Below, in pieces: positions 5,846 to 23,130 of a stretch of DNA of 64,000 nucleotides. Within the stretch, counting starts at the first letter, position 1; every line of letters begins with the position of its first letter. Origin of the DNA: Escherichia phage vB-Eco-KMB43; the sequence record OR525698.1; one strand, written 5' to 3'. The translations under genes and the position numbers were made by a program. The notes under the pieces were generated by a model that saw only the letters and a program-made list of their open reading frames with translations, did no database searches and had not been told where the DNA came from.

Positions 5846-7330
5846 ATGCAAGATATTAAAATTCACTTTCTGAACTATTCCCATGTTCAAATTGAATGTA
5901 GCGATTCAATTTTATTAGAAATGCGAGATTATTTTAGTTTTGAAGTCGAGGGAGCGCGGTTTCAAAAAAGATTTAAGTATGGTGGATGGGATGGGCGTAT
6001 TCGTCTTTTAGACTACAACGGAAAGTTGCCTATCGGCCTAACTAAAACCGTGGGAATCTTCGCTAAAAATATGGGCTATAGCGTATGGGTAGATCCTCGC
6101 TTATTCGAAAAAGAACAAGTTACAGAAGAAGAAATTACAAAATGGTGTAATGACTTAGAATTATATTCCGGTGCTAACAGGATCACCCCGCACTGGTATC
6201 AATCAAAGGCTGTCTTTGAAGGTATCCATCATAAACGCCGTATGTTAGTTTTGCCTACGTCCGCTGGTAAATCTGCGATTGCTTGTATGTTGTCTCGCTG
6301 GTACTTAGAGAACTACGAAGGGAAAGTGCTGATCATCGTTCCTACCACGTCGCTAGTGCTGCAAATGCGTGATGACTTTGTTGATTATCGCCAGTTTCCT
6401 TATGAAGCAATTCATACTATCATGAGCGGTACTAGTAAACACGTAGGTGATCGCCTGATCGTTGTTAGTACGTGGCAATCAGCATGTAAACAGCCTCGTG
6501 AGTGGTTCCAACAATTCGGGATGGTTATTGTTGACGAATGTCACAAAGCCACTGCTAAAAACCTGCTAAACATCGTTACTGATATGGATCATTGCCAATT
6601 TAAGATCGGTATGACTGGTTCCCCTCGTGACGGGAAAGCTAACATGATGCAGTATGTCGGGCTTTTCGGTGATATTTCTAAGATCGTGAGTATTGACCGC
6701 CTGATGGAAGAAGGGCAGGTGACAAAACTGAAAATTAACTGTCTTTTCCTTCGTTATACCGATGAGGAATGTAGCGCGGTTAAGGGTAGAGAATATGCGG
6801 AAGAGATCAAGTATATTACGTCTAACCCACGACGAAATAAGTTTGCTTGTAATTTGGCGCTAAAACTCGCTAAGAAGGGCGAAAACGTATTCCTTATGTT
6901 CCGCAATACTAAGCACGGAAAACTTATGTATGACGCGTTACAGAAGGTACACGACAAGGTTTATTATATTGACGGTGGAGTTAAGACAGAAGAACGTGAT
7001 GAATTTAAGAAATTAGCGGAAGGGGAAACCGGGATCATTTGCGTTGCATCCTATGGTGTGTTCTCTACTGGTGTTTCAATTAAGAATTTGCACCATGTTA
7101 TTTTCGGTCATCCAGTGAAGGAATCAACTATCGTTCGTCAGAGTATCGGTCGTGCATTGCGTAAACATGGTTCTAAGGATATTGCAACGGTCTGGGATCT
7201 TATAGATCATCTGGCGGTGAAGACAAAGAGCAAGAATGCTAAGAAACAGTTTAGTCACCTTAATTATGCTCTTAAACACGCGCTTTTGAGGATACAGCTT
7301 TACAATACCGATAAATTTGAGTATGCTTAA
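5846..7330 (+). CDS. uvsW: UvsW DNA/RNA helicase; 3' end altered by a 55-bp tandem duplication
   Basis: MQDIKIHFLNYSHVQIECSDS... aligns with T4 UvsW (MDIKVHFHDFSHVRIDC...) including helicase motifs (PTSAGKS, DECH); ORF stops at TAA 7328-7330 inside the second repeat copy; native C-terminus ...EYVTKTIEI with stop at 7401-7403 lies downstream. Confidence 0.85.
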   Translation: MQDIKIHFLNYSHVQIECSDSILLEMRDYFSFEVEGARFQKRFKYGGWDGRIRLLDYNGKLPIGLTKTVGIFAKNMGYSVWVDPRLFEKEQVTEEEITKWCNDLELYSGANRITPHWYQSKAVFEGIHHKRRMLVLPTSAGKSAIACMLSRWYLENYEGKVLIIVPTTSLVLQMRDDFVDYRQFPYEAIHTIMSGTSKHVGDRLIVVSTWQSACKQPREWFQQFGMVIVDECHKATAKNLLNIVTDMDHCQFKIGMTGSPRDGKANMMQYVGLFGDISKIVSIDRLMEEGQVTKLKINCLFLRYTDEECSAVKGREYAEEIKYITSNPRRNKFACNLALKLAKKGENVFLMFRNTKHGKLMYDALQKVHDKVYYIDGGVKTEERDEFKKLAEGETGIICVASYGVFSTGVSIKNLHHVIFGHPVKESTIVRQSIGRALRKHGSKDIATVWDLIDHLAVKTKSKNAKKQFSHLNYALKHALLRIQLYNTDKFEYA

Positions 7331-7380
7331 ACACGCGCTTTTGAGGATACAGCTTTACAATACCGATAAATTTGAGTATG
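7271..7380. repeat. perfect 55-bp tandem duplication (2 copies) at the uvsW 3' end
   Basis: 7271-7325 and 7326-7380 are identical: CTTAAACACGCGCTTTTGAGGATACAGCTTTACAATACCGATAAATTTGAGTATG. Confidence 0.95.
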
Positions 7381-7409
7381 TCACGAAAACCATCGAGATT
7401 TAATAAATA

Positions 7410-7431
7410 GGGGCTTTAATGCCCCTTTATT
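7410..7431 (+). terminator. candidate rho-independent terminator after uvsW
   Basis: GGGGC-TTTAAT-GCCCC hairpin followed by TTTATTCT, immediately after the native uvsW stop. Confidence 0.6.
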
Positions 7432-7446
7432 CTACGGAGATTAAAA

Positions 7447-7683
7447 ATGATTAGCTTTAAACGTTTTTTGGTTGAGGCCGCTATTGACGGTTTCATGCGT
7501 AAGATTTATTCTTGTAATACTATCGAGGGATTAAATGAACTTGAGGCATATTATGAGAAGCGCAAGAAAGAAACAGAATTGAAACCTGCTGATGATATTT
7601 CGATCCGTGATGCCATCGCTGGACGCCGTAAGCAACTGGAAGCGGACAACGAGCCAGAAGATGAGCCGGAAGAGGATTTTTAA
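7447..7683 (+). CDS. uvsW.1: UvsW.1-like small protein (78 aa)
   Basis: Intact ORF with GGAGA RBS directly downstream of uvsW, as in T4. Confidence 0.6.
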   Translation: MISFKRFLVEAAIDGFMRKIYSCNTIEGLNELEAYYEKRKKETELKPADDISIRDAIAGRRKQLEADNEPEDEPEEDF

Positions 7684-7694
7684 GATATAAAAAA

Positions 7695-7713
7695 GCCCCA
7701 TCATTGATGGGGC
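7695..7713 (-). terminator. candidate terminator between uvsW.1 and the uvsY cluster
   Basis: GCCCC...GGGGC hairpin flanked by A-runs on the plus strand (T-run on the minus strand). Confidence 0.45.
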
Positions 7714-7746
7714 AAAATAAACCAATTAAAATCGGTTATCAACAAA

Positions 7747-7923
7747 TTACATTAACAGCATTGTTTGCTCTACGAGTTGTTCTTGTTCTTCGCCGTTCGC
7801 ATCTTCACTAATCGAACGTTCTGTTACTAGCTGTAAGCAGTAGCCAGTGTGAACAACGCCGTTTTCTGTCTGGACGGATAACGCATCCTCGACAGGTTGT
7901 TTACAACAAATACAGATTTTCAT
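7747..7923 (-). CDS. small Cys-rich protein, UvsY.-2-like (58 aa)
   Basis: Manual translation MKICICCKQPVEDALSVQTENGVVHTGYCLQ...; below the ORF-track length cutoff; position as T4 uvsY.-2. Confidence 0.45.
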   Translation of the reverse strand: MKICICCKQPVEDALSVQTENGVVHTGYCLQLVTERSISEDANGEEQEQLVEQTMLLM

Positions 7924-7944
7924 AAAAATTCCTCCTGCATGTAT

Positions 7945-8352
7945 TTAGCGACCAGATTCCAGCATACGCAATTCTATAGCATTCTTGATCGCAAAGCCAC
8001 GAGATTTAACGATATCAAGTGCGCGACCAGCAAAATCCATTACCATCTGGTAATATGCAATTTTCGTATCAAGTGGTAAGATCTCGTCGTCTGCTGCCAT
8101 GACAACTTTCAATTCTGATTTCTCATATTCAGCACGACACCAGTCATCACTACGGTTAGTGTAAAAATCAAGACGATTTTTCATAGCCTTTTTCTTTTTA
8201 GCCTCAAGAGCAATCGTCTCTCTTTTCGCCTCGCTGTAAATCCTTAACCACTTTGAGTATACTACCGGATTATTCAGCGCCTCCCATTGCAACTTAGTCG
8301 CATCGATCTTCATGTCAGCTTCTAATTGTTCTTTCAAATCGTTTAGGTCCAT
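7945..8352 (-). CDS. uvsY: UvsY recombination mediator
   Basis: 135 aa; ...LQWEALNNPVVYSKWLRIY...KSRGFAIKNAIELRMLESG aligns with T4 UvsY. Confidence 0.85.
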   Translation of the reverse strand: MDLNDLKEQLEADMKIDATKLQWEALNNPVVYSKWLRIYSEAKRETIALEAKKKKAMKNRLDFYTNRSDDWCRAEYEKSELKVVMAADDEILPLDTKIAYYQMVMDFAGRALDIVKSRGFAIKNAIELRMLESGR

Positions 8353-8399
8353 AATATCCCCTTATTCACACTAAGACCTATATCATATCACACACAAAA

Positions 8400-8798
8400 T
8401 CACTTTGCAAGTCTTATGCGTAGTTGTTCAAGATCATCTGGGTTATCTATTACTGAAAAGTAGATTGATACTATGATTGAGTTATCGTCGTACTGCGGAG
8501 TTACTTCTACTGTCAGGTTTCGGACCCGTGGTTCATAGTTTCGGATCGCCTCATTGATGTTTTTTGATAAGGTGTCCACTGTCAGTGGGTTCATGTTCTC
8601 AAACAGTGATTTATTGAGATCGCATCCAAACAGTGGATCAAATGGACGAGATCCCTTGCGAGTAGTCACGATCAGTAGAATAGAATCCTTAACCGCTTTA
8701 ATCCCTATGTTCTTTTTAACGTCGTTATTCCACGATCTGGATATATTGAGATCCAAATCAGTATACATCTGATTAATAGTTGCCATGTTATACCTCAA
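8400..8798 (-). CDS. 25: baseplate wedge protein gp25
   Basis: 132 aa; TTRKGSRPFDPLFGCDL...FSVIDNPDDLEQLRIRL matches T4 gp25 almost motif for motif. Confidence 0.9.
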   Translation of the reverse strand: MRYNMATINQMYTDLDLNISRSWNNDVKKNIGIKAVKDSILLIVTTRKGSRPFDPLFGCDLNKSLFENMNPLTVDTLSKNINEAIRNYEPRVRNLTVEVTPQYDDNSIIVSIYFSVIDNPDDLEQLRIRLAK

Positions 8799-9424
8799 AG
8801 AATTTTAAGGAAACTGGATAGACCTGATAATGAATATACACCAGATTCCCCGCATTCGCACTTGATCGGTACTGCCAGCGTGATTTGATTTCTTGTTAGC
8901 TCGTCGATCACTTCTTCCACTTTATCCGTGGTAAGCATATCCAGCACACGGTCAAAGTCCTGTGCGTTCAGGTCGTCTATATTGAATTGCTGATCGCCGA
9001 TCACGATATATTCGATACATGCAATTACCATCTGCATAATATCAACATCTTCTGTAAATTTAGGTTGACGAAACTTGATTTTTACTTGTCCTAAGTCTAG
9101 AATATATGGTTCAACTTCTGGTATCTGTGTGCGTGAAACATCAAGAGAATATACTTTCTCTTTATTGCATACACCACACACCCAAGTAGCATCAATTTTC
9201 ATCTTATTGAGGCTGTGACACCATAAGAGAAGAAAAATATATTCTGCTTCGCATTTCTCTAGCTCTAATGCATTGATCCCCGTACATTCATGTATGATCT
9301 CTATAACAACCTCTGACAGCTTGCCAGTCTCTTTTGCTGCTACCAGTTTTTGAAATTCGCCGAAGGTGAAAGCACGGGCGTGTATCAACTTTTCGCCTAA
9401 TTGGATCTTGAAAAAGTATTGCAT
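8795..9424 (-). CDS. 26: baseplate hub protein gp26
   Basis: 209 aa ORF upstream of gene 25 and divergent from gene 51 as in T4; contains CGVCNKEK motif shared with the neighbouring gp51. Confidence 0.65.
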   Translation of the reverse strand: MQYFFKIQLGEKLIHARAFTFGEFQKLVAAKETGKLSEVVIEIIHECTGINALELEKCEAEYIFLLLWCHSLNKMKIDATWVCGVCNKEKVYSLDVSRTQIPEVEPYILDLGQVKIKFRQPKFTEDVDIMQMVIACIEYIVIGDQQFNIDDLNAQDFDRVLDMLTTDKVEEVIDELTRNQITLAVPIKCECGESGVYSLSGLSSFLKIL

Positions 9425-9466
9425 AATAAAACACCCTTTATAAACACATAGAATTATTTAGTATTT

Positions 9467-9474
9467 TATAAATA
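9467..9474 (+). promoter_or_regulatory. T4-type late promoter TATAAATA upstream of gene 51
   Basis: Exact TATAAATA 21 nt upstream of the gene 51 ATG. Confidence 0.6.
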
Positions 9475-9494
9475 CCCGAAAGGGGGATTATACC

Positions 9495-10265
9495 ATGAAT
9501 ATTATCCGAATAAAACTACCGGAAGGTGTGCAGAGATTTAAACCCTTCACGGTAAAAGATTATAGAGATTTCCTTCTGGTGTCAACTGAAATTAAGATGA
9601 ATCCAGAAGAAGAACAAACGATTCTGGATGAGCTATTAGAAGAAATATATCCAGAAGTAGATCCGGCATTTCGTGAATATATTTTCCTGAATGTCTTTAC
9701 TAGTTCAATTGGTAAAACTAAGATACCGCTTTGTTTTACTTGCCCGACTTGCAACAAAGAAAGAAAAATGTTGCTTAACTTACAGGTTGAAGCACTAAAA
9801 CCAATCGTTCTAGAGGCCGCAGGGCTTAAAATAACTTTCCGGTATGTTAAACCATCAACCGACTATGCAAAAACGTTTCTGGATGCGATAGAGCGTGTAT
9901 CTGATGGTATTAATGATTATCTATGGACTGAATTACCGGAAGAAGTTAGAGAACAGGTTATCGATTCAATCTCATTTGCTGAATTTGAAGAAGTTGTTAA
10001 GCAGATGCACACAATCAAGATCGAACAAAAGATATCTTGTTGTGAAAGTCATGACCTGAAATACATAGGTCTTCTTCCATTGTTCAAATTGTTGTTGAAT
10101 CCAGATGAGTTATTCATCTTTTATCGAATAAACCATCTATTGGCAAAATCAAATTATTCTATCAGTGATCTTATGGACATGTTACCCGTCGAGAGAAACA
10201 TTGCACTGACACTGGTCGAGAAAGACGTAAAAGAGGCAAACAATGCAAAGAACGGGGTTTCCTAA
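9495..10265 (+). CDS. 51: baseplate hub assembly protein gp51
   Basis: 256 aa ORF at the T4 gene 51 position; GGGGA RBS; CPTCNKERK motif paralogous to gp26. Confidence 0.65.
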   Translation: MNIIRIKLPEGVQRFKPFTVKDYRDFLLVSTEIKMNPEEEQTILDELLEEIYPEVDPAFREYIFLNVFTSSIGKTKIPLCFTCPTCNKERKMLLNLQVEALKPIVLEAAGLKITFRYVKPSTDYAKTFLDAIERVSDGINDYLWTELPEEVREQVIDSISFAEFEEVVKQMHTIKIEQKISCCESHDLKYIGLLPLFKLLLNPDELFIFYRINHLLAKSNYSISDLMDMLPVERNIALTLVEKDVKEANNAKNGVS

Positions 10266-11352
10266 TGTCTCAATAAAACTTTATCAGGATTATGAGGCAT
10301 TTCTAAATCATCGCTTTATAGAATTGGGTGCTACCTTTGTTACAATGACTCTGCGTGATTCGATTCGTGGGGTGAACGAAGGATTGTTGCAATTCTATGA
10401 TAATAAGGCGATGCATACAAAATTAAACGGGAGAGAGATCATTCAGATTTCTCTATCCACTGCTAATACAGATGAAGTGTTTAACCGAATCTATGGGATC
10501 TCTCATAGTAATGTAACAATTGACCAAAAATCAGACAACATTTTAACATTCCAGTTAAAGAGTTATCATGAAACCCTAAACCTTAAATTTTCTAGCTCAT
10601 TGACAAATAACGCTGTTAATAACGTAACTAGTATGATTGATGCCATCTATAAGGAAGTTCCTTTATGGAAACCTACTATAAAGGGTGATAACGTTGTTAT
10701 TCCTCGTTGTCCGTGGGTTAGTACCATAAATGACTATATGGATTTTGTTAGGGCATACGGGCAAAGCGTAGAAACCGAGTCTTTCGTGTATTGCTGGGAA
10801 GATTTTGATGGTATAACGATCGCTGGACACGATACAATATTAAAAAATGAGCCAATACCAGCTATAATCTGTGAGCCTAGACTCATGGGGCAATTTATTG
10901 ATATGTCGCCTAATCTGATGGTTTTTAATTTCGAGTGGCAGACTAAGAGCAATGCTAAAGTTAAAAATTCATTTAGCAATGTGACATACACAACTATTGA
11001 TTTTGTTACTAAGCAGTATAATAAAATTATTGTTGGTAATGGGGATAATATTGCACACTTTGCTCATGGCGGCGCTTATGGCGATTTAACTTATAAGAAT
11101 GCGTTTTTGGAAGGTTCTAAACTTGCCACAATAGAACAATATGATTCATATGCTACCGCCGTGTGTCACGGTAATTTTTCGTTGCGCCCTGGTATGGTTA
11201 TTCGATTCTTTGATGAGAAGCAACAAGCACGCAATGATTTTATTGTTGACGAAGTTGTGCATGAAATTAGCCGAGAGCAATCATTAACTCACCTGTATAT
11301 GATCGGTAACAGCGAAGAATTACAGGAAGTCAAATTTGAAGGTAAGATATAA
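10243..11352 (+). CDS. 27: baseplate hub protein gp27
   Basis: MQRTGFPNVSIKLYQDYEAFLNHRFIELGATFVTMTLRDS... aligns with T4 gp27 ([31 protein letters not shown]...). Confidence 0.9.
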   Translation: MQRTGFPNVSIKLYQDYEAFLNHRFIELGATFVTMTLRDSIRGVNEGLLQFYDNKAMHTKLNGREIIQISLSTANTDEVFNRIYGISHSNVTIDQKSDNILTFQLKSYHETLNLKFSSSLTNNAVNNVTSMIDAIYKEVPLWKPTIKGDNVVIPRCPWVSTINDYMDFVRAYGQSVETESFVYCWEDFDGITIAGHDTILKNEPIPAIICEPRLMGQFIDMSPNLMVFNFEWQTKSNAKVKNSFSNVTYTTIDFVTKQYNKIIVGNGDNIAHFAHGGAYGDLTYKNAFLEGSKLATIEQYDSYATAVCHGNFSLRPGMVIRFFDEKQQARNDFIVDEVVHEISREQSLTHLYMIGNSEELQEVKFEGKI

Positions 11353-13058
11353 TGACAGAAACTAAACCTATGTTAAAATTTGTTGTTCCTGTAAAAAAAT
11401 TAGAGATAAACGGGAAACATATCAAGATCCCAAAAATGGGGATTAAGCAACATCGATTATTAAAAGATGTTCGTAGCTGTGATGAAACATTAAAGATTCT
11501 TCTTGATTCAATCTGTCCTGGGTTAAACGCTGCCGAGTCTGAATTGGTTATGCTTAACCTTTGTGCGTATGAAGAATTGCAAAAACTCAATAATTTCTCT
11601 TCTCAGATGAATGAGAAATTACGTGGTTTTGGTGTTATGATGGAACGTAGATTTGGTGTTGTCAGTAAAATGGCTAGCGGTATTGGTGCGATTGAAGAAG
11701 CACTGAAAAAACCGGAACAACCGCAAACAATGCCATCACCTCAGCCAGTTTTGCCTACTGTACCGGAACAGCCTAATAATGACAACTATCAAGGTCTTCC
11801 AAAGAAAAAACCAGATGTTGAGGAACGGAAGAAAAAGAACGCCGCAGATAAGCGCAATGCGGATTCTATGGAAAATCTTCTTAAAGTTGTTCGTGGAGGA
11901 TTTAAAGAAACCATAGGTATCTCTAATAAGGTCTTAGGGATGTTATTTAAGATCACCTTGACCGCTATGGCAGAAGCCGCAAAATGGGGCGCTATTTTGA
12001 TGGGTATTGTTTTTGCCATTGATACCCTTATGATTCATTTCAGATATTGGAGTGATTTATTCGAAACAAAATTTGATGAATTTATGGATAAAGCCGGAGA
12101 ATGGGCTGGACCCATTAGTGATATTCTAACAACTATTCGTCAAGTTCGAGATTATTGGTCTAAAGGTGAATATGGAGAATTAATTAAATCTCTTGTTATG
12201 GGTATTGGTGATGCATTCTATAAAACCTTTATCCAACTTGATCGAATTATCACTACTGGTATTGCTAAAATTCTTCGCATGATCCCTGGTATGGGTGATT
12301 ATGCCGATAAGTTAGAATATGGTGCTTTAAAATCTGCTGTCGCTCAAGGTTATACGCCAAATGAAAGAGAACTCGAATTAATGGATAAGGTCGAGTCTGA
12401 ACACGAAGAGGACAAATACGGGGAGCGTACTGGTTGGACCGGAAAAGCCCGTGATATTGGTGAGGCTATCGGTGACTCCATTAAAGATAAAGTTAACGAG
12501 GGTCTTGTTAGTCTGGGTTGGAGAGATCAAAAGGATGTTGACGCAGAGAAGCGACAAGAAGAATTAAAGCGCGGAGAATATGAGTCTGTTTCTGCTGAAC
12601 AACGATCTGCTAGTCGTAAACTTAGAATTAAAAGTGAGGGCGCGATCAACAATATTAATGAAGTTATGGAGAATTTGAGCGGTGACTATGACAAAGAAAG
12701 AATGGGAGAGTTGAAAAAGGATATTGATGTTTACCGTGAGCAAGTTCAAGATCCTACATTAGTTGAAAGTGATCGTTCTCAGTTAGAGCGTCTTATTGAA
12801 AAATTTGATGAGATGTATGCTGATAAAACTAAGGGTGTTGTGCAAACACAGCCGGTTCCTGCAACTGAAACGGAAACAGCAAAACAAGCGGAACGTACTG
12901 AACAAATGCAGAAACAAGCTGCAATCCAGAAACAAACGACAAATCAGACCTCAAACGTAAATAATACACAAATTGTAACAAACAATAGAACTATTAAACA
13001 GGGTGCACCAACAACTAGAATTGATGCCCCCGGTACAATTAATATGGGGAACTTTTAA
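11352..13058 (+). CDS. 29: baseplate hub / tail-tube length determinant gp29-like (568 aa), occupying the T4 gene 28 and 29 positions
   Basis: Single ORF starting with ATGA overlap on the gene 27 stop; Pro/Gln-rich and charged low-complexity stretches typical of tape-measure-like proteins; no separate gene 28 ORF found. Confidence 0.6.
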   Translation: MTETKPMLKFVVPVKKLEINGKHIKIPKMGIKQHRLLKDVRSCDETLKILLDSICPGLNAAESELVMLNLCAYEELQKLNNFSSQMNEKLRGFGVMMERRFGVVSKMASGIGAIEEALKKPEQPQTMPSPQPVLPTVPEQPNNDNYQGLPKKKPDVEERKKKNAADKRNADSMENLLKVVRGGFKETIGISNKVLGMLFKITLTAMAEAAKWGAILMGIVFAIDTLMIHFRYWSDLFETKFDEFMDKAGEWAGPISDILTTIRQVRDYWSKGEYGELIKSLVMGIGDAFYKTFIQLDRIITTGIAKILRMIPGMGDYADKLEYGALKSAVAQGYTPNERELELMDKVESEHEEDKYGERTGWTGKARDIGEAIGDSIKDKVNEGLVSLGWRDQKDVDAEKRQEELKRGEYESVSAEQRSASRKLRIKSEGAINNINEVMENLSGDYDKERMGELKKDIDVYREQVQDPTLVESDRSQLERLIEKFDEMYADKTKGVVQTQPVPATETETAKQAERTEQMQKQAAIQKQTTNQTSNVNNTQIVTNNRTIKQGAPTTRIDAPGTINMGNF

Positions 13059-14116
13059 TGAAAATTAGTGTTATCAATGATGCCGTTGATAGCTTTAAAG
13101 CGGGGGTTAAAACCTCCGCTGGTTTTACCTCAAAAAATAAAGGGAAAACATTAACCGCTCAATTCCCCGCTGAACGTGCTAGCGGTAATGATGCTAGCGG
13201 TTATTATATCAACGACTTATATAATAATGGTCTGTTATTCACTGCATACGATTACACCTCTCGTACTACTGGATCGCTGCGTGATTTCAGGAAAAAGAAA
13301 AATGTTGCTAGCGGTTTTGGTGGTAGCGTTAATATCGCTGGTTTTGATTTAAATTTGGGTGGGAGAAATGCTGCATTTGACCGAGAGGCAATTGCTAATA
13401 TTCTTCTTCCTCGTAGTCAATCTGACGTTGACGCTGCCAGCCATAAGTTTAATGATGTTGGTGAATCTGTTATTTCTCGCGGCGGTGGTACTTTAGGCGG
13501 TGCTCTTTCTAATATGGCATCTACTGCCGTTTTTGGTGGTATCGAAAGTATTACTGGTGGATACCTTGCCGATCACGGTGAACAGATTTATAATACTGCG
13601 CGAAGCATGTATGCGGGTGCTGATGCACGAACTAAAAACTACGTATGGCATCTAACCCCACGTAGTATTGAAGACCTTCGCAATATTCTGATCATATACG
13701 AAACGTTTTTAGAATTGTCTTATGGTTCTAGTGGCATTTCCAGCACCGCAAAAGAATTAAAAGCGGAAGTTGATGCGTGGTATAAAAATACACTATTGAG
13801 AAAATCCACCCCAGAGGAAGCGAAGAGAAATGATACTCTGTTTGAAGGGATCACCGATTTTCTATCAAACGTAATTACTGTATCTAACCCGACAATATGG
13901 ATGATCTCTAACTTCGGCAAGCGTACATCGTTTGAAGGGCGTAGCGATGCATTTGGTCCCGCTCAGATCTCAAGTGTACGTCTGGACAAGTCGCCTGATG
14001 GTAAGTTTAATGGCCTTGCTATTTCTCCTAACTTGCCGAGTACCTTTGTTCTGGAAGTATCATTTAGAGAGATCTTGACACTTTCCCGTGGTACTATATT
14101 TGGGAGTGCGGCATAA
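13058..14116 (+). CDS. 48: baseplate tail-tube cap gp48
   Basis: 352 aa ORF (T4 gp48 is 364 aa) in syntenic position; start overlaps the upstream stop. Confidence 0.75.
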   Translation: MKISVINDAVDSFKAGVKTSAGFTSKNKGKTLTAQFPAERASGNDASGYYINDLYNNGLLFTAYDYTSRTTGSLRDFRKKKNVASGFGGSVNIAGFDLNLGGRNAAFDREAIANILLPRSQSDVDAASHKFNDVGESVISRGGGTLGGALSNMASTAVFGGIESITGGYLADHGEQIYNTARSMYAGADARTKNYVWHLTPRSIEDLRNILIIYETFLELSYGSSGISSTAKELKAEVDAWYKNTLLRKSTPEEAKRNDTLFEGITDFLSNVITVSNPTIWMISNFGKRTSFEGRSDAFGPAQISSVRLDKSPDGKFNGLAISPNLPSTFVLEVSFREILTLSRGTIFGSAA

Positions 14117-14568
14117 TGTTTGATTTAAATGACTTTAACGAACAAGCCGCTAACCTTGACTTTCAGCGATCGAACTTATTCAGCGTGGCATTTGCCACCA
14201 CTCCAAGTAATAAGACACAAGCGATCCTAGAAAGTATGGGTGGTGCGGTATATGATATTATACCAAATGCATTAAATGACTATTTCGGGATTACTCGTGG
14301 TGATTATACTGACGCATTAACAAATCTTGCTGTGCAGGGTGTTAGGCGTGCTGTTGATTCATCTGGTGTCAAAAAGTATCTTTTAGGTGCAATGTCATCC
14401 CGCGTAGTTCAATCTCTTCTGGGGCAATTTGATGTTGGTACATATGCGCTTGACTGGTTCAATCTGGCATATAAGACAAGCGGTCTTCTGGTGTATGCTG
14501 TTAAGGTTCCAGAAAACAGATTGAATTATGAAATGGACCGTAACCACAATGCGCCAAACATTCGATTA
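14116..14568 (+). CDS. 54: gp54 baseplate tail-tube initiator, N-terminal segment (gene interrupted)
   Basis: MFDLNDFNEQAANLDFQRSNLFSVAFATTPS...NRLNYEMDRNHNAPNIRL aligns with T4 gp54 residues 1 to about 150; homology ends at about 14568 and the frame then runs into junk and a stop at 14646. Confidence 0.8.
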
Positions 14569-14945
14569 ATGGTAAGTGTCTGGAAGAAAAAGATGGTCTT
14601 AAGCTGTCTGATGTGTATATTTGTACAGAGACTGAATTTACTTTAAATGGTAAAGTCTTTAAATTTAAAAATCCAATGTATACTTCTGACCCCATTATCG
14701 ATGACGCTGATTTCTTGAGTCATCATTATCACGATCCTAGTGTAGACTTCCATGATTTCCCAGCTTTTATTATGGATTGGGCTACAGGATTAAGAAAAAC
14801 TATTGCACTGGATACACCGGAAGGTACTATCTATGGTGGAATTAACATATTGGATCGCCTATCATGAATGACGCATTAACATCATTTCGCGGGATGCGCA
14901 AGGAAGCGGAAGAAAACCCGATTGATAAACTTAACAAATTAGATA
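14569..14945 (+). other. about 375-bp intervening sequence splitting gene 54 (candidate intron or insertion)
   Basis: gp54 homology stops after NIRL and resumes at NGRDFDPLVLSFRMDSS in a different frame; the insert contains in-frame stops; boundaries good to about 3 nt. Confidence 0.7.
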
Positions 14946-15425
14946 AACGGACGTGATTTCGATCCGCTTGTATTGAGCTTTAGAATGGACTCTAGCGCAT
15001 CAAACTATCGAGCAATGCAGGATTGGGTTAACTCAGTAGAAGACCCCGTTACAGGGCTTCGTGCGCTTCCTGTTGACGTTGAAGCAGATATTCAGGTTAA
15101 CTTACATAACCGAATGGGAGTTCCTCACACGATCATGATGTTTAATGGTTGTGTTCCTGTTGGTGTGAGTGCACCGGAATTAACCTATGAAAATAACAAC
15201 GAAATAACAACATTCGATGTTACTTTCGCATATCGTTCTATGCAAACTGGTGCTGTAGGAGAGCAAGCCGCGCGAGAATGGATTGAGGATAAGGCAATAA
15301 ACGCAATAACAAACACTTTCGGCAATAATTTACTTGATAGTGGGTTATCTGCTGCTGGTAATGCTTTATCGCGTCTAAATGGCGTTGGTGGGCGTGTGGT
15401 GAATACTGTCACTAACTGGTTCTGA
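14946..15425 (+). CDS. 54: gp54 baseplate tail-tube initiator, C-terminal segment
   Basis: GRDFDPLVLSFRMDSSASNYRAMQDWVNSVEDPVTGLRALPVDVEADIQVNLH... aligns with T4 gp54 ITGRELDPLVISFRMDSEACNYRAMQDWVNSVQDPVTGLRALP... to the C-terminus. Confidence 0.8.
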   Translation, partial: NGRDFDPLVLSFRMDSSASNYRAMQDWVNSVEDPVTGLRALPVDVEADIQVNLHNRMGVPHTIMMFNGCVPVGVSAPELTYENNNEITTFDVTFAYRSMQTGAVGEQAAREWIEDKAINAITNTFGNNLLDSGLSAAGNALSRLNGVGGRVVNTVTNWF

Positions 15426-15434
15426 TAATCGAAA

Positions 15435-15459
15435 GGCGGGGATTATCCCCGCCTTTTTA
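15435..15459 (+). terminator. rho-independent terminator after gene 54
   Basis: GGCGGGG-ATTAT-CCCCGCC hairpin followed by TTTTTAT. Confidence 0.7.
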
Positions 15460-15942
15460 TTTTGCTAAATCATTGCAATATTTTAGTGCCTTAGTTTGAA
15501 ATTCTGCGCTGTTAAGTTCTTCATAACGGTCATAATCACCGTTTAATGCTGCTTTTCTTGCTTCTTGCTCTATCTGCATGTCAGACATGATAATACAGCG
15601 ATCCCGTGCTTTCATCTTCTCAAGTTGTATAAACTCTTCTTTCTGTTTGCGCAATTCTTCTTGACGCTTCTTTTCTTCTCGTGCTTTCTCTTCCCGCGCT
15701 TCTTTGATTGCATCCTTGAACATCTGCGTTTGTGGTGCTAAACCAACTTTAACGCGACCCACGTCTCGACGTTCCATTTTAGAAATAAAGCATGATTCGA
15801 TCTGATCATCACTTGCATATGCTGCTTTACATTCACGAAGCAAGAAAACCGGATCTGATTTAGCATTCATCATAGCTTCCATGTTAGCACAACCAGTAAG
15901 CATGAATGCAGACGCAAGACCAATTAGTTTAATCATTTTCAT
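15457..15942 (-). CDS. predicted lipoprotein (161 aa)
   Basis: N-terminal signal peptide with lipobox LTGC; charged Lys/Glu-rich repeat region. Confidence 0.6.
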   Translation of the reverse strand: MKMIKLIGLASAFMLTGCANMEAMMNAKSDPVFLLRECKAAYASDDQIESCFISKMERRDVGRVKVGLAPQTQMFKDAIKEAREEKAREEKKRQEELRKQKEEFIQLEKMKARDRCIIMSDMQIEQEARKAALNGDYDRYEELNSAEFQTKALKYCNDLAK

Positions 15943-16763
15943 TTAGTCACCTCACCGAAAATTGTAAATTGTCTACGATTCTCATCGCCGAAAGATTCTA
16001 CTACGTCGTTTACCTTGACGCAAGTCCCGCGCGGTAAAATTACTTCACATTCGCAAGGATTCCATGCAATTGACCCAACAACAAAACCTTTATGATCTTT
16101 TACGTCAATTACCCACGATACATTACAAGAATGTTGCATCTTTCCGGTCATCGATTCATATCGATTCTCACAATAAAGGCTAGTGCTGTTTGATAGCCAT
16201 CCTCCAAAGATGATCGGTGTCATGCTGGTCGATACAAAGTTTTTAAAGGTAAACTCCTTATCTTCAATGATGCGCTCTATTGTCTGAATGTCAAGATGTT
16301 GACCGCGATAAAGAGTACCGTTTAACTTTTCGGTTTTATCCATGACACAATCCATCAAATCGACAATCTCTGATATCTCGTCGGTCATGTCTTCTTCCCC
16401 TAAGAGAGCACCATTTACCCATTCGTATTGTTCAGATACATAATCACAGATTGCATTATATTCTGCTGGGGTTATGTTGTTATGTTTGTAATGTTTGAAT
16501 ACATTATCTCCAAAGTCTTCGGAATGTACTTCATACATCACATTAATGATTTTCTTGACAAATCCATAATCTTGTGTCTCGCGCTCAAGGAAGCGGATAA
16601 CCTTCACATAATCATCAAAGTTAATCTGATCGCTGATCATCTCAGTGATCATGTAACCATTAATCCCCTCAATGTCATATGTTTCAATATAATTGTCCAT
16701 ACGTTCCATCATTGATTCGCGTGATTCTTCCGAAAGACGAAAATCCTGTAATTTCTTGAACAT
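15939..16763 (-). CDS. Alt-like ADP-ribosyltransferase paralogue (274 aa)
   Basis: C-terminal region YRGQ...FVSTSMTPIIFGG...ECEVILPRG parallels the Alt catalytic R-S-E region (YR..., FVSTSL, EILLPRG) seen in the adjacent alt gene. Confidence 0.6.
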   Translation of the reverse strand: MFKKLQDFRLSEESRESMMERMDNYIETYDIEGINGYMITEMISDQINFDDYVKVIRFLERETQDYGFVKKIINVMYEVHSEDFGDNVFKHYKHNNITPAEYNAICDYVSEQYEWVNGALLGEEDMTDEISEIVDLMDCVMDKTEKLNGTLYRGQHLDIQTIERIIEDKEFTFKNFVSTSMTPIIFGGWLSNSTSLYCENRYESMTGKMQHSCNVSWVIDVKDHKGFVVGSIAWNPCECEVILPRGTCVKVNDVVESFGDENRRQFTIFGEVTK

Positions 16764-16842
16764 TTTAAACCTCCCATATAACAGAAAACGGGGCTAGTAT
16801 AAAACTAGTCCCCGTTTGAGTCAACCATTATTTCTTAAAAAA

Positions 16843-18894
16843 TTACATTTTAAATTTATCTGGCATTGCGTCTACAGATACCAGATCAGCGATAAGCTGA
16901 CGTAGAGTTGCCTTATCTGCTTTCTTACGTTCGGTTTTAGCTTCGCTAATGAAGCTGGAGAAAGACAGGTCAGAAGCAGGTTTAATAACACCTTCACGGA
17001 TGAATGCATCACCGTCTGCGATCATCTCGCCAGATTCTTGTAATGCTGCCAGTTCATTTTTGTTCATAATATGTGCCTCAATGTAATAAGTTTCTTGTGA
17101 ATCCGTCGATGCCGTAGCACGAGTTACCGTATCAAAGGATAACACAACACCGCGAGGAAGTAAAATCTCGCATTCTTTGTAAGCAAATGCTTTGTTACCT
17201 ACTGGCAACACAGGGATGTTTTCCGCGCCAGCAATGGAGAAAGCAACATTAGCGCCACCTTCACCGCGAGAGCCAGCCATAGAATCAACACCAGCAACGG
17301 CACTAGCCACGTTTGCATTCCAGCCGCCAAAAATGTTAGGTGCAAGGGAAGTGCTCACATAGTTTTTAAAGTAAAACGCTTTTTGCTTACGTGCAGTTTC
17401 CCACATTTGAGTCCGGAAGTCCATACCACGATACAGAATAGTACCCGGATCAAGTTTAACGCCATAGTTGGAGAAGGCATTATCCAGTGCATCGCACATC
17501 TTGACCAATTCTTCTGGATCTGCGATGCCTTCAAACTCTTCCAGCTTACGATCAGTTAGGAAGTTGTTCATATTGATGTATGCTGCATCGGCATATTCGC
17601 TCAATACAAAACCTTCCGCGCCCGGCAGATCAAGATCAATATCTGCCATCATTTCACCCATGTTGCTAGCAATTGCTTCAAACATACCGGAAGCAACATT
17701 ACGTAGGGCATCGGTTTTAATCTGGGTGATATGACTACGCAGCATTTCAGCTTTTACATCTGCTGGCATAGACTGGTCTACTCGATCCATTGCCAGGGCG
17801 GTGATCTTGTTTTCGAATACTTCCTCGCTCATGATTTCTTTTAAGCGTTTGATTGATGCTGCGATAACTTCCGCAGACAACGGATCATATTGATCCTGAA
17901 CTTTTACCAGTTCGCTTACTGCGTATTTTGCATCTGCTTCGCTTTCAAAAATAGTACGCATGAAACCATAGCGAGTGATAATATCACTTGTCCAGTCATT
18001 CAGAGAACGGGCGGTTGAACGTTCTAATGCTTGACGATCAATCAGAGTATTAAACTGTTTCTTAGGTTCGGCTTCGGTGATATCTTCTTCCGGTTTAAGA
18101 TTAATTTTTTCTGGATGATTCACATAGTCGCTGTTATAGGTCGCTTGAGTTTTCAGCATTTCTTCTTTAGTCAAACGAGATTTAGCCGCTACGCGTTGTT
18201 CTGCTTCCGCGTTTCGTTCTTCTTCTGACACAAGACTAGCCGCATACGCCTCATCTTTAGTCAGAGATTCACCAGTAGCCTTAGATACCCAGCGATCACC
18301 TAAATCACTTTCTACTTTAGTGAACAAGGATTCATCAAGTTTAATCCCTTTAATCTTATCAATCGCCATCCCGCGACGCTTGACAACAACTAAAGCGATC
18401 TTTTTGCTGGTCATTACTTCCTGCTGGAATACTTCAAACTTCGGTGTACGACGCACCAAACGCTCTATAACGCGCTTAACCAGTTCGGTCTTACCTTTCA
18501 TGCGGGATACGTTAAAACGGAACATAACAGCGTCTAATTGCGCTTTACGGGCTGTTTCCATAACCACATCAAAAGCACTTGCCATAACTGCAATCGGGTT
18601 ATCTCCTAGACCATTTTTAAGCTGTACAATACGACCGCTTTTGTTCATTTCGCACAGTACAACATGTGCGGTCTTGTCACCCATACGAATGATTTTAGGT
18701 GTTTTGTTGGTGAAGTTACAAAGACGGACAATCACATCTTTATCGCGTGTCTGTACTGCAAAAAGCTGTTTAGGATTCTGCTTAGGCTTTAAGCACTGTA
18801 CCGGAGCAATACTGCCAAAGTTTTCTTCCTCTTCCGTCAACAGCCATTTCTCGAAAGATTCAATCATTAGATCGTCGATTTCTAAGTTAAACAT
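16843..18894 (-). CDS. alt: Alt ADP-ribosyltransferase (head-packaged)
   Basis: 683 aa (T4 Alt is 682 aa); LFTKVESDLGD and C-terminal FYFKNYVSTSLAPNIFGG...ECEILLPRG match T4 Alt. Confidence 0.85.
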   Translation of the reverse strand: MFNLEIDDLMIESFEKWLLTEEEENFGSIAPVQCLKPKQNPKQLFAVQTRDKDVIVRLCNFTNKTPKIIRMGDKTAHVVLCEMNKSGRIVQLKNGLGDNPIAVMASAFDVVMETARKAQLDAVMFRFNVSRMKGKTELVKRVIERLVRRTPKFEVFQQEVMTSKKIALVVVKRRGMAIDKIKGIKLDESLFTKVESDLGDRWVSKATGESLTKDEAYAASLVSEEERNAEAEQRVAAKSRLTKEEMLKTQATYNSDYVNHPEKINLKPEEDITEAEPKKQFNTLIDRQALERSTARSLNDWTSDIITRYGFMRTIFESEADAKYAVSELVKVQDQYDPLSAEVIAASIKRLKEIMSEEVFENKITALAMDRVDQSMPADVKAEMLRSHITQIKTDALRNVASGMFEAIASNMGEMMADIDLDLPGAEGFVLSEYADAAYINMNNFLTDRKLEEFEGIADPEELVKMCDALDNAFSNYGVKLDPGTILYRGMDFRTQMWETARKQKAFYFKNYVSTSLAPNIFGGWNANVASAVAGVDSMAGSRGEGGANVAFSIAGAENIPVLPVGNKAFAYKECEILLPRGVVLSFDTVTRATASTDSQETYYIEAHIMNKNELAALQESGEMIADGDAFIREGVIKPASDLSFSSFISEAKTERKKADKATLRQLIADLVSVDAMPDKFKM

Positions 18895-18940
18895 TTTATA
18901 TCCTCTAGTTGATAACCTATAAACCTATATTTATGAAAAA

Positions 18941-18955
18941 GGGGCTTAACGCCCC
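18941..18955 (-). terminator. candidate terminator between ORF 18962-19174 and alt
   Basis: GGGGC-TTAAC-GCCCC hairpin preceded on the plus strand by AAAAA. Confidence 0.55.
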
Positions 18956-18961
18956 CATTTA

Positions 18962-19174
18962 TTATAATGCACCATCGAGCAATTGCTCTAAGGTGTATCC
19001 TGAATAGTCTTTTTCAATCAGGATATATTTTCCTACTCGTTTAATACAACCGCGCATTTCAACGTATTCTGCGTAGTTGATGGTGCGAGTTGTTCCATCT
19101 TCCAGTAATGCAGTACCGATTTCGTTAATGCGGTCATAAGTTACGTCGGTAATGATGATTTCGATGTTAGCCAT
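18962..19174 (-). CDS. hypothetical protein (70 aa)
   Basis: ORF with AGGAG RBS downstream of a promoter cassette. Confidence 0.55.
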   Translation of the reverse strand: MANIEIIITDVTYDRINEIGTALLEDGTTRTINYAEYVEMRGCIKRVGKYILIEKDYSGYTLEQLLDGAL

Positions 19175-19204
19175 TTGATACTCCTTAGTAGTTCGTTTCG
19201 GTAT

Positions 19205-19245
19205 GGGTGTATTATGATATACACCCTCTGTTATGTCAACAACTT
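19205..19245 (-). promoter_or_regulatory. early promoter cassette (sigma70-like, PeSL-type)
   Basis: Reverse complement reads TTGACA, 17-nt spacer, CATAAT, then conserved leader ACACCCATACCGAAACG. Confidence 0.6.
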
Positions 19246-19425
19246 TTAGAACATTTTTGAAATCAATTCTGCTTTGATTTCGCAGAGAACATCTAAAGAT
19301 TTCTCGTCACCTGCTTTTGCTGCTTCTGCTTGCATTTTTGAAATGGCTTCAATGTCGGTGCAATTATAAGCCGCTTGAACTTTAGCGATTGCGATGATTG
19401 CCGATTCGATGGTTAAGTGTTTCAT
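19246..19425 (-). CDS. small hypothetical protein (59 aa)
   Basis: Manual translation MKHLTIESAIIAIAKVQAAYN...; preceded by promoter cassette and GGGGAATCAAAC RBS. Confidence 0.45.
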   Translation of the reverse strand: MKHLTIESAIIAIAKVQAAYNCTDIEAISKMQAEAAKAGDEKSLDVLCEIKAELISKMF

Positions 19426-19454
19426 GTTTGATTCCCCTTTCGTTTCGGTATGTG

Positions 19455-19490
19455 TGTATTATAGGGGATCACCGATCCCCCTGTCAACAA
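19455..19490 (-). promoter_or_regulatory. early promoter cassette with palindromic spacer
   Basis: Reverse complement TTGACA-GGGGGATCGGTGATCCCC-TATAAT; spacer is a perfect GGGGATC/GATCCCC palindrome. Confidence 0.65.
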
Positions 19491-19498
19491 CTTTTTAG

Positions 19499-20050
19499 TT
19501 ATTTTTTTAATTGCTCATCTTGCAATAGGGCAATCACATGCTGGCGATGTTCTTCCGATTGAGGCACACCGAAAAAGTTTGTTTTGTAGAAATACTCTAA
19601 TCGGTCTTCTCGTGTGCTCTCTTCCATCATGATCGCGGGTAGTCCGAGATTTCGGAAACGTCGCTTTTCTGCTGGCGTAAAATCACTGTAATACAACATA
19701 GAATCATCATTACCAGCAATGCTAAACTCATCCTTCATAAAGGAGAATATTGCGTTTAAACGCTGTTTACCGTCCACGATTTCGATCTCATAGCGAGAGC
19801 CATCATCAATCTTAGCCATTGCGATAGCACCGACCGGAAAATCATTAATCAGGTTTTCGATAAACATACGTTTGTTTTCGGTGTCCCATACCAAAGGACG
19901 CTGATAATCTGGGTTCATGTTGATATAGCCATCTTCTAACCATGCTTCGTAAACAGAGATGACAAAGTTTTTAGTATTGGTATAGTAACGGCGTTTAGGC
20001 GTTAAACGGTTCATGTTATAGTCTCCTGAATGGATCATCACGTAAATCAA
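19499..20050 (-). CDS. DUF262 (ParB-like nuclease domain) protein
   Basis: 183 aa; DYQRPLVW...FPVGAIAMAK...EIVDGKQRLNAI matches the DUF262 DGQQR signature region. Confidence 0.55.
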   Translation of the reverse strand: MIYVMIHSGDYNMNRLTPKRRYYTNTKNFVISVYEAWLEDGYINMNPDYQRPLVWDTENKRMFIENLINDFPVGAIAMAKIDDGSRYEIEIVDGKQRLNAIFSFMKDEFSIAGNDDSMLYYSDFTPAEKRRFRNLGLPAIMMEESTREDRLEYFYKTNFFGVPQSEEHRQHVIALLQDEQLKK

Positions 20051-20348
20051 TATCTTTTAAGAACTCATCCCATGAATGGCGGATATTGTTCTTAATTCTC
20101 CAGATAAGCGCAGGGATTGAACGCTCTCCCATCTGGAAGTATGGATCATATGATCCGTATGCCCAATATGCTACTACAATTCCACAATCAGCGCAATAGT
20201 ATTCTATTTCACTTGCTGGCGACCAAAGTCCATCAATATGATCGGTGATCTTGCTTTCGATGTTATGGCTATGACAATCAGGGCAACGGATGCAATGACC
20301 TTGTTTATCGTAATTTGACGTTAGCGAATACTTAAACAATCTCATCAT
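20016..20348 (-). CDS. small zinc-ribbon-like protein (110 aa)
   Basis: CxxC...CxxC arrangement (CIRCPDC, CADCG); start overlaps the upstream stop. Confidence 0.5.
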   Translation of the reverse strand: MMRLFKYSLTSNYDKQGHCIRCPDCHSHNIESKITDHIDGLWSPASEIEYYCADCGIVVAYWAYGSYDPYFQMGERSIPALIWRIKNNIRHSWDEFLKDIDLRDDPFRRL

Positions 20349-21061
20349 AGATCCTTATTTGCTTCAAATACTGCCTTTGCGAATCCTCGCGGGGTAAGTG
20401 ACCTGATAGTCTTTGTTTTCGTTCCTTTCCCGCCTAGCTTAGAATGCTGTTTACTGTACCCTTTATTAATCTGCAAAGGTTTCTTTTCTGGCATTATAAA
20501 GCCTTGTCCGGTCCATAAGCAAGTCTTTTTCGGGTACATATCACGGGCGGCGATATACTCAGGAAAAGTAGGATGTTTATCATCTTCCGGCAAATAACCG
20601 CCATATTCCCACGGATGGAACATATAATCAGGCTTACGCCACATGCTAGAGATAACGCTTACAGGATTCTCTATCATGTAGGGAACTCCTAGCCATTCAC
20701 CCAAATAAGCGGTTATTTTAGCTGCCCGTACATCATGAACTTGAATCAATGGTCCTTGCTCTCGTTTCTTTCGTTCAAAGTGTGCAGCGCCACTAACAGC
20801 TAAATTGGTGCACGGTGGGAATGCAAAGATAATATCCGGTTTCCCCCATTCAAGGTCCATTGCTCTTTCCAGCCAGTTCAAATCAATCCAGGTGTTTACA
20901 TAGGTAATGTTTGGATGTTCAAATCTGGTATTATACTTTTTGTATGTACCGTGGTCGGCGTCATCCGCATTAAAGCAGACTACCTTATGACCTGCTTTAG
21001 CCCATTCTAGCCCCATTATCCCCGATCCGTCAAAGTTACAGAATATTAATTTTTGTTTCAT
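20345..21061 (-). CDS. C5-cytosine methyltransferase-like protein (divergent, 238 aa)
   Basis: FCNFDGSG (motif I-like), IIFAFPPCTNLAVSG (motif IV-like Pro-Cys), MIENP (ENV-like); no clear motif VIII or X, so family assignment is tentative. Confidence 0.45.
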   Translation of the reverse strand: MKQKLIFCNFDGSGIMGLEWAKAGHKVVCFNADDADHGTYKKYNTRFEHPNITYVNTWIDLNWLERAMDLEWGKPDIIFAFPPCTNLAVSGAAHFERKKREQGPLIQVHDVRAAKITAYLGEWLGVPYMIENPVSVISSMWRKPDYMFHPWEYGGYLPEDDKHPTFPEYIAARDMYPKKTCLWTGQGFIMPEKKPLQINKGYSKQHSKLGGKGTKTKTIRSLTPRGFAKAVFEANKDL

Positions 21062-21303
21062 ATACGCCCCTTTAATCCAACACAGATTTTAGAAGGTTCT
21101 TTGCCGTGCCACATTAAGTAAAGTCCATTAATGCGGCCTTGTTTTGTATATGATTCTTTTCTGATCTTCTTATAGTGTCGTGCTTCCTCAGCCGATTGTT
21201 TAGAATACCAATCATAAAGGAAGAGGCACAAAGGCCAACCATTAGCGGCCTTAATGCAGTTATTAAGAAATTCCTTATTGCGTTTAATTAATTTTCTTTT
21301 CAC
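21058..21303 (-). CDS. hypothetical protein (81 aa)
   Basis: Intact ORF, start overlapping the upstream stop. Confidence 0.5.
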   Translation of the reverse strand: MKRKLIKRNKEFLNNCIKAANGWPLCLFLYDWYSKQSAEEARHYKKIRKESYTKQGRINGLYLMWHGKEPSKICVGLKGRI

Positions 21304-21551
21304 GCTGCCCCCATTGGTTTGATAGTAACAGAATCTAAAAGACCTTTGTTAGCCAGTTCGCGGCAAGTTTTCAGATCCGCAACTTCCCAGCCAGCCGCAA
21401 TCAGGTTATCGATGAGGCTGTTAGCAACTTCTTCGCTCATGAAAGAGCACTGTTTGCCGATGGTGTAGCGTACACGCTGTAATTTCAGTTTACGGAAGCC
21501 TTTAACGTTCAGGTCTTTAGCGATTTTCTTTGCGGTTTCGATGTTAGCCAT
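21300..21551 (-). CDS. hypothetical protein (83 aa)
   Basis: Intact ORF with GGAGAATCAAAC RBS downstream of a promoter cassette. Confidence 0.55.
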   Translation of the reverse strand: MANIETAKKIAKDLNVKGFRKLKLQRVRYTIGKQCSFMSEEVANSLIDNLIAAGWEVADLKTCRELANKGLLDSVTIKPMGAA

Positions 21552-21587
21552 TGTTTGATTCTCCTAAGTGGTATCTAGTCTTGATGG

Positions 21588-21622
21588 TTGTATTGTAGGG
21601 GAGTTATCCTCCCCTGTCAACA
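21588..21622 (-). promoter_or_regulatory. early promoter cassette with palindromic spacer
   Basis: Reverse complement TTGACA-GGGGAGGATAACTCCCC-TACAAT. Confidence 0.6.
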
Positions 21623-21634
21623 CTTTTTATAAAA

Positions 21635-21802
21635 TTATTTGTTAATTTCCGGTGCGTTGCTAGGATAGTAACCTTCTTTAACTCCGAGGTATTTCGCAAC
21701 CATCCCTACAATCTTCTGTGCTACTACAATGTCAAATTTCAGATAATCTTCGCCGTGGGTTTCAATGATATATGCTTCACATGCTGCTTTAGTCTCGAAC
21801 AT
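21635..21802 (-). CDS. small hypothetical protein, paralogue A (55 aa)
   Basis: MFETKAACEAYIIETHGEDYLKFDIVVAQKIVGMVAKYLGVKEGYYPSNAPEINK; near-identical second copy at 25256-25423. Confidence 0.55.
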   Translation of the reverse strand: MFETKAACEAYIIETHGEDYLKFDIVVAQKIVGMVAKYLGVKEGYYPSNAPEINK

Positions 21803-21832
21803 TTTGATTCTCCTATTTCGTTTCGGTATGTG

Positions 21833-21868
21833 TGTATTATAGGGGATCTCCCGATCCCCGTCAACAAC
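21833..21868 (-). promoter_or_regulatory. early promoter cassette with palindromic spacer
   Basis: Reverse complement TTGACG-GGGATCGGGAGATCCCC-TATAAT then conserved leader and GGAGAATCAAAATG. Confidence 0.65.
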
Positions 21869-21880
21869 TTTTTTTTAAAA

Positions 21881-22162
21881 TTATTCGTGATTAGTTTCGA
21901 TGTTGTGCATTTTGCACCAGTTCAGCCAATCACCCAGATCCTGATAGTTAATGCTTTTATCTGCTGCCATCGTTTTTGTCTTGATACCCATATGTGCGTT
22001 ATGAGTAAGCATTTTTACAGTGAACTCAATTTTATCACCTTTAGCTTTAACATCAACCAGTTTGGTCCACTGGCTACCAGCGCCGCGAATGTTCATACCA
22101 ACGATGTTTCCGATGTATGCTTCTTTGTTTTTCAGGATTTCGGTTGCTTTGATGAATTTCAT
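21881..22162 (-). CDS. hypothetical protein (93 aa)
   Basis: Intact ORF with GGAGAATCAAAAATG initiation context. Confidence 0.55.
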   Translation of the reverse strand: MKFIKATEILKNKEAYIGNIVGMNIRGAGSQWTKLVDVKAKGDKIEFTVKMLTHNAHMGIKTKTMAADKSINYQDLGDWLNWCKMHNIETNHE

Positions 22163-22192
22163 TTTTGATTCTCCAGTTCGTTTCGGTATGTG

Positions 22193-22226
22193 TGTATTAT
22201 GCTATTTTCTTACTTTGGTGTCAACA
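22193..22226 (-). promoter_or_regulatory. early promoter cassette
   Basis: Reverse complement TTGACA-N17-CATAAT with conserved leader. Confidence 0.6.
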
Positions 22227-22233
22227 ACTTTTT

Positions 22234-22503
22234 TTAGATATTTTCAGAAATAAATTTTAAAACTTGACGTAAATGTTTCTCATCTTTGATAGTCGCCGGA
22301 AGTTCTTCTTTTACTTCCTGTGCAAGATAGATATTTCCGTTCCAAGTGAAAGATCCGTCTTCGTTTACGCGATAGCTGAACATCCACTCGCAATCATTTT
22401 CGATTTCATATACACACAGAAGAGTGTAATCTTCAAAGCTATTGATTTCAAGGTCGAAGCCGTGACGTTTTGCAAAGTTGGTAGTGGTTTTAGTCAGTGC
22501 CAT
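22234..22503 (-). CDS. hypothetical protein (89 aa)
   Basis: Intact ORF with GGAGAATCAAACAATG initiation context. Confidence 0.55.
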   Translation of the reverse strand: MALTKTTTNFAKRHGFDLEINSFEDYTLLCVYEIENDCEWMFSYRVNEDGSFTWNGNIYLAQEVKEELPATIKDEKHLRQVLKFISENI

Positions 22504-22540
22504 TGTTTGATTCTCCTAAGTGGTATCTCGTCTTGATGGG

Positions 22541-23122: not shown

Positions 23123-23130
23123 TAATAAAA

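Follow-up and report, generated by a model that had tools for sequence, protein, structure and literature searches.

The uvsW region and its duplicated segment

The window, by which we mean the whole 64-kb stretch of DNA analysed here, belongs to an RB49-like T4-type coliphage (genus Krischvirus). Among the matches listed in the phage collection, the closest deposited genome is LF73P4, which is 97-99.7% identical to the window over the two sites described below. The product of uvsW carries the Pfam domains UvsW_N, ResIII and Helicase_C, and the intact UvsW of LF73P4 matches T4 UvsW (PDB 2OCA) with E = 1e-196. The gene is followed by a terminator-like hairpin (folding at -12.5 kcal/mol, z = -2.2) and by the intact gene uvsW.1. 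Coordinates of all these features are collected in Table 1.

Close to the 3´ end of uvsW, a segment of 55 bp is written twice in direct succession. Reading of the sequence, Tandem Repeats Finder, an exact-periodicity scan and a repeat-family search all agree that 7271-7325 and 7326-7380 are identical, which bears out the perfect duplication described in an earlier note on this DNA. Tandem Repeats Finder reports 2.0 copies of period 55 over 7271-7380, with 100% matches and 0 indels. The copies abut directly, without a spacer, at a start-to-start distance of 55, and the periodic run found by the exact-periodicity scan is exactly 110 bases long. As written, the site reads …TATGCT[CTTAAACACGCGCTTTTGAGGATACAGCTTTACAATACCGATAAATTTGAGTATG] x 2 TCACGAAAACC…. 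By our estimate, the chance of an exact 55-bp tandem copy in 64 kb is about 64000 x 4^-55 and hence negligible. The period is broken on either side of the repeat (T at 7270 versus G at 7325, T at 7381 versus C at 7326). Because these flanking bases mismatch, the borders of the repeat are unambiguous, and there is no short flanking repeat or microhomology at them.

The duplication has a direct consequence for the protein. As the earlier note had also claimed, the uvsW frame meets a TAA at 7328-7330 and UvsW ends in …KFEYA, while the native ending (…KFEYVTKTIEI, with its stop at 7401-7403) and the hairpin persist just downstream; reading of the open reading frames agrees on each of these points. 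In the relatives, the C-terminus of UvsW is …KFEY(V/A)TKTIEI, and this tail is conserved out to T4, where it reads …KFNYVMKTVN. Deletion of one copy in silico yields a UvsW of 500 aa with the same C-terminal ending as in LF73P4.

The 3´ end of uvsW is variable in its own right. At 7279-7321, inside the duplicated unit, two sharply different haplotypes occur among Krischvirus strains, separated by 13-15 differences per 43 bp. One of them is found in the window, LF73P4 and Makalu_002, the other in nine further strains. Upstream of this patch lies a fine mosaic of small patches.

Table 1. Features at the two duplication sites. Positions refer to the window; a slash marks the seam between copies, and a dot means that no strand is given.
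Feature	Position	Strand	Remarks
uvsW as written	5846..7330	+	494 aa from the ATG annotated in relatives; ends in KFEYA and stop, six residues short
First copy of the 55-bp unit	7271..7325	+	Genuine 3´ part of uvsW, codons …LKHALLRIQLYNTDKFEY + G; aligned to the single copy of relatives
Second, identical copy (extra sequence)	7326..7380	+	Frame shift +1; TAA 7328-7330 brought in frame
Copy-to-copy junction in uvsW	7325/7326		…AAATTTGAGTATG/CTTAAACACGCGC…
The same junction, longer context	7310-7338		GATAAATTTGAGTATG/CTTAAACACGCGC
Native end of uvsW, left orphaned (…V T K T I E I stop)	7381..7403	+	TAA 7401-7403; separated from the ORF by the duplication
Terminator-like hairpin 3´ of uvsW	7409..7426	+	GGGGC-loop-GCCCC, then T-rich tail; invariant in aligned relatives
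uvsW.1, next gene, intact	7447..7683	+	Pfam UvsW-1, E = 1e-21; annotated uvsW.1 in RB49 and JSE
Gene 32 (ssDNA-binding protein), broken as written	44137..45160	-	ATG 45160; stop after 51 aa
First copy of the twin 55-bp unit	45005..45059	.	Within gene 32, which is on the minus strand; about codons 16-34
Twin 55-bp unit, second copy (identical)	45060..45114	.	Frameshifts gene 32
Junction in gene 32	45046-45071, seam 45059/45060		GCCACCTTTCAGTG/TTAATCTTCCAC
Putative assembled piece between the joins	7326..45059	.	37,734 bp; 55-mers at start and end

A twin duplication in gene 32

The exact-periodicity scan revealed a second exact run of 55 x 2 bases at 45005-45114, confirming that a duplication of equal unit length lies in gene 32. 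Its periodic run is again exactly 110 bases and its flanking bases are again mismatched on either side; Tandem Repeats Finder and the repeat-family search place the same repeat in another register (44999-45114, 98%). The motif TCAGT upstream of the unit resembles the end of the unit and was considered as possible microhomology; it is separated by a mismatch and lies off the junction, and we regard the resemblance as chance.

The gene product is recognized by Pfam gp32 with E = 4e-51, and as written its DNA-binding core is out of frame. When one copy is deleted in silico, a gp32 of 322 aa is obtained, in which 315 of the 323 translated positions (stop included) are identical to gp32 of RB49. 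Since gene 32 is an essential gene of T4, a frameshift in it should not be found in a phage that forms plaques.

The two duplications stand alone in the window. Across spacings of up to 2 kb, the exact-periodicity scan detected no other exact repeat run longer than 33 bases, so that exact tandems of period 55 number just two within the 64 kb.

Search for the duplications in related genomes

Both sites were compared with the phage collection, using queries of 901 bases each. In every relative listed (the best 40 of 58 matching records), the uvsW site spans 846 bases, i.e. it contains a single copy. The gene 32 site is likewise single-copy in every relative listed (the best 40 of 65), spanning 846 bases or, in ELT3 with its 11-bp insertion, 857. 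The relatives listed match each query in two pieces and are 55 bp shorter. Base-by-base alignment of 11 strains at the uvsW site and 14 at the gene 32 site confirmed the single copy. In addition, exact searches of IMG/VR, JGI metagenome contigs and GTDB genomes with 26- to 37-mers covering the junctions of both sites gave no match. A shared duplication, which would have spoken for a real conserved feature, is thus absent from all relatives listed and from these three collections.

In the examined parts of the relatives, no 55-bp tandem was found; the sole tandem there is one of 79 bp in vB_Eco_SAP (OZ034687.1), an exact duplication at about 39625-39784 of the record, lying over a small annotated hypothetical ORF. 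It may be another untrimmed join.

Other structural features of the window

One further rearrangement is peculiar to the window. All 54 relatives with a match carry five segments in the order A, B (383 bp), X (158 bp), C (about 3 kb) and D, segment B containing the last part of gene 28 and the first part of gene 29. The order in the window is A-C-B-D, with A reaching to 11568, C at 11569-14565 and B at 14566-14948, inside gene 54, while relatives have B between 11568 and 11569. Lost in the process were X, the 158 bp of gene 29 adjoining B, and 5 bp (ATTAC) at one junction. At each of the three junctions, at most 1 nt is shared, and among the 54 relatives the arrangement is found in none. Three baseplate genes, 28, 29 and 54, are broken by it: genes 28 and 29 form an in-frame fusion ORF (11352-13058, 568 aa) and gene 54 is split. 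Comparison with relatives brought up no other inversion or relocation confined to the window. At the level of single bases the quality is otherwise good: few small indels set the window apart, and most of them fall in variable regions, so the defects of the window look to be structural only.

At 38273-39213, the window shares with LF73P4 (99.4%) a cassette of 855 bp (38316-39170) that is missing in five relatives. Direct repeats of 43 nt lie on either side, and the cassette carries, on the minus strand, an ORF of 283 aa (38299-39150), in which motifs resembling those of cytosine-5 DNA methyltransferases (FAGIGG, PPCQPFS) can be recognized by eye; it looks like a natural gene cassette. Two stretches, 23893-24514 and 55038-58558, are unmatched by the six long relatives compared. 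In the former, 622 bp of the early-gene region stand in place of the 762-785 bp of relatives; the latter covers some 3.5 kb of the distal tail-fibre region. Both have the appearance of ordinary hypervariable regions.

Intergenic repeat families of about 60-80 nt (D1-D7) are present at 19190-27056, 35188-35790 and 62594-63998. Each repeat consists of a GC-rich hairpin followed by GTCAACAACTTTTT, and these repeats seem to resemble the promoter-early stem-loop repeats described for RB49-type phages.

The record of LF73P4 (OZ035795.1) has a peculiarity of its own. In its region at about 37.7-83.3 kb, the block that matches 26966-53327 of the window is reversed relative to the window and to five other Krischvirus genomes, and about 88 bp (window 26966-27053) overlap at both borders. 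Either the record contains a large inversion or OZ035795.1 is misassembled.

Origin of the duplications

The earlier note had proposed that the two duplications share a common origin, and named an assembly artefact, slippage or recombination at microhomology, and deliberate modification as candidates. A common origin is well supported by our results. Of the proposed sources, the assembly artefact gained most: the unit equals the 55-bp overlap of SPAdes contigs, the relatives checked have a single copy and an essential gene is destroyed. We consider it most likely that the duplication is absent from the phage DNA and represents a data-quality problem, not a biological feature; that the duplications are physically real in any form appears very unlikely.

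The SPAdes assembler uses k = 55 as its default largest k for short reads, as does metaSPAdes. In our view, both duplications are probably overlaps of k = 55 that were left untrimmed where contigs were joined or the genome was re-opened. If short reads were assembled through a de Bruijn graph whose final k is 55, the ends of neighbouring pieces would share exactly 55 bases, and a circularly permuted T4-type genome would close on itself in the same manner. Had such pieces been placed one after another, or had a circular contig been re-opened at a new start, with the shared 55-mer left untrimmed, each seam would have turned into a perfect 55-bp tandem duplication. The two seams, 7325/7326 and 45059/45060, would then bound one piece of 37.7 kb. 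As 55 is not divisible by 3, the reading frame is shifted at each seam, which accounts for a UvsW without its last six residues and for a gp32 of 51 aa. Which assembler was used, with what k, and how the pieces were joined, we infer from the sequence.

Several observations agree with this scheme. The repeat length is 55 at both sites, matching the overlap reported for SPAdes; the seams are of equal length and form the only long exact tandems of the window; and removal of one copy gives the sequence of the relatives, with the genes restored. Moreover, the base immediately following the 55-mer is polymorphic among relatives at both sites. At 7381 (T/C), the window has T and Makalu_002 has C, and at 45115 (A/C), A is shared by the window and LF73P4, against C in 13 other strains. 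This has the look of a branching graph vertex, where contigs end. We give it little weight: the joint chance of both next bases being polymorphic is about 0.01-0.02, for a test chosen post hoc.

Two elaborations of the scheme were rejected. If the window were a chimera of different strains, its nearest relative should switch at the seams; the mismatch profiles, in bins of 250 bp and 1 kb, show the nearest relative unchanged at 7326 and 45060, within the usual fine mosaic. For the same reason, they offer no explanation why the contigs should have ended there. A k = 55 bubble at uvsW was also considered, because the unit contains the patch with two haplotypes (7279-7321). The borders of this patch disagree with such a bubble, and in uvsW only the T/C site at 7381 is compatible with a branching vertex.

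Alternative explanations

The relocation at 11568-14948 is not accounted for by untrimmed overlaps. It sits inside the putative 37.7-kb piece, and an overlap model fails for it, given its clean abutments, the loss of 5 bp and the lack of any 55-bp overlap. Some other editing process must therefore have touched the sequence, and could in principle have made the duplications too. For this reason we retain, as unlikely but not negligible, the possibility that both duplications were introduced in silico after assembly, accidentally or deliberately, by something other than untrimmed overlaps and in the same set of edits as the relocation; cut-and-paste slips during re-orientation or curation and simulated structural variants are examples. 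The deliberate modification envisaged in the earlier note gains some weight in this way, namely from the homology-free nature of the relocation. A graph assembler would not yield such a rearrangement, unique to the window and breaking three genes across junctions with next to no shared sequence, and the duplications have equally clean, homology-free junctions. The good base-level quality, which leaves structural defects only, fits editing as well. On the other hand, it would be a coincidence if an editor had hit upon a standard assembler k as the unit length, and the sizes involved in the relocation (383, 158 and 5 bp) are unrelated to 55. That both 55-mers end at a polymorphic site is expected of graph vertices, not of arbitrary edits. 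Untrimmed overlaps hence remain the reading we prefer.

Real mutations in the phage DNA, i.e. short tandem duplications produced by replication slippage or illegitimate recombination, are highly improbable. T4-type phages do generate tandem duplications, and the change in uvsW, taken alone, might be tolerated, as it removes only six residues and uvsW is non-essential in T4; the uvsW unit also overlaps the mosaic patch at 7279-7321, so the region is recombinationally active. But slippage or recombination at microhomology, as suggested in the earlier note, finds nothing to act upon, since neither junction has any microhomology and no short direct repeat borders either unit. Two independent events of identical length would be needed, with zero divergence between the copies in both, and neither duplication recurs in the relatives listed or in the three large collections. 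A gp32 cut to 51 aa should be lethal, gene 32 being essential by T4 genetics, and a viable genome is not to be expected.

For the duplications to be physically present, there would have to be a process that copies a fixed stretch of 55 bp without microhomology, and the phage would have to tolerate the frameshifted gene 32 or get around it, perhaps with the aid of a helper genome or by a restart at GTG 45105; this combination strikes us as extremely improbable. It is hardly more credible that the duplications exist in a subpopulation only (defective genomes or amplification chimeras) and were picked up by the consensus, which would reconcile a lethal lesion in gene 32 with a junction present in some molecules but leaves the equal length of 55 bp at two loci unexplained, amplification chimeras being, besides, mostly inverted and dependent on microhomology. 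The window itself offers no minority-variant signal to examine.

Significance

The significance of untrimmed overlaps is one of quality control only, and the record should be flagged. If the sequence is used uncorrected, it provides a truncated UvsW and a split gp32, to which the relocation adds broken genes 28, 29 and 54, and such errors spread to protein databases and pan-genome comparisons. A cheap screen suggests itself: exact tandems with the length of an assembler k (55, 77, 79 or 127), without microhomology and absent in relatives, are a sign that joins were left untrimmed in a deposited phage genome. The 79-bp tandem of vB_Eco_SAP was found here as a candidate.

Comparison with known systems

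Directly repeated sequence is a regular property of T4-type phages in the form of terminal redundancy. This redundancy measures kilobases, is found at the ends of every packaged molecule and, being permuted, differs from molecule to molecule in the population. In a consensus it does not show up as an internal 55-bp tandem, whereas both repeats described here are internal and lie within conserved genes.

Spontaneous short tandem duplications and frameshifts in T4 arise at short direct repeats, through slipped mispairing or illegitimate recombination. With them, our case shares a frame-shifting tandem duplication in a T4-type phage. It differs in that flanking short repeats are missing, the length is identical at two loci, an essential gene is hit and neither duplication occurs in the relatives listed.

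The closest likeness is to the overlap of contig ends in SPAdes assemblies with k = 55: the unit measures 55 bp exactly, its two identical copies abut, and the length is equal at each seam. A contig of a T4-like phage, also circularly permuted, had ends overlapping by 55 bp, which were trimmed before the genome was re-opened (PMC8483715), and in another phage seven SPAdes contigs were joined via overlaps of 55 bp (PMC12697093). In the window, the overlap was apparently kept and is internal rather than terminal, and there are two seams, implying at least two pieces from a presumed SPAdes assembly.

Sanger sequencing has exposed as artefacts the internal repeats of about 79 bp in phage genomes assembled from short reads only (PMC10438801). 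They differ from ours in length (79 versus 55 bp) and in phage group, and the artefact status of our repeats is deduced from sequence. In both cases, a spurious repeat of fixed length would lie inside a re-oriented phage genome, and a comparable exact tandem of 79 bp is present in vB_Eco_SAP, a deposited relative of the window.
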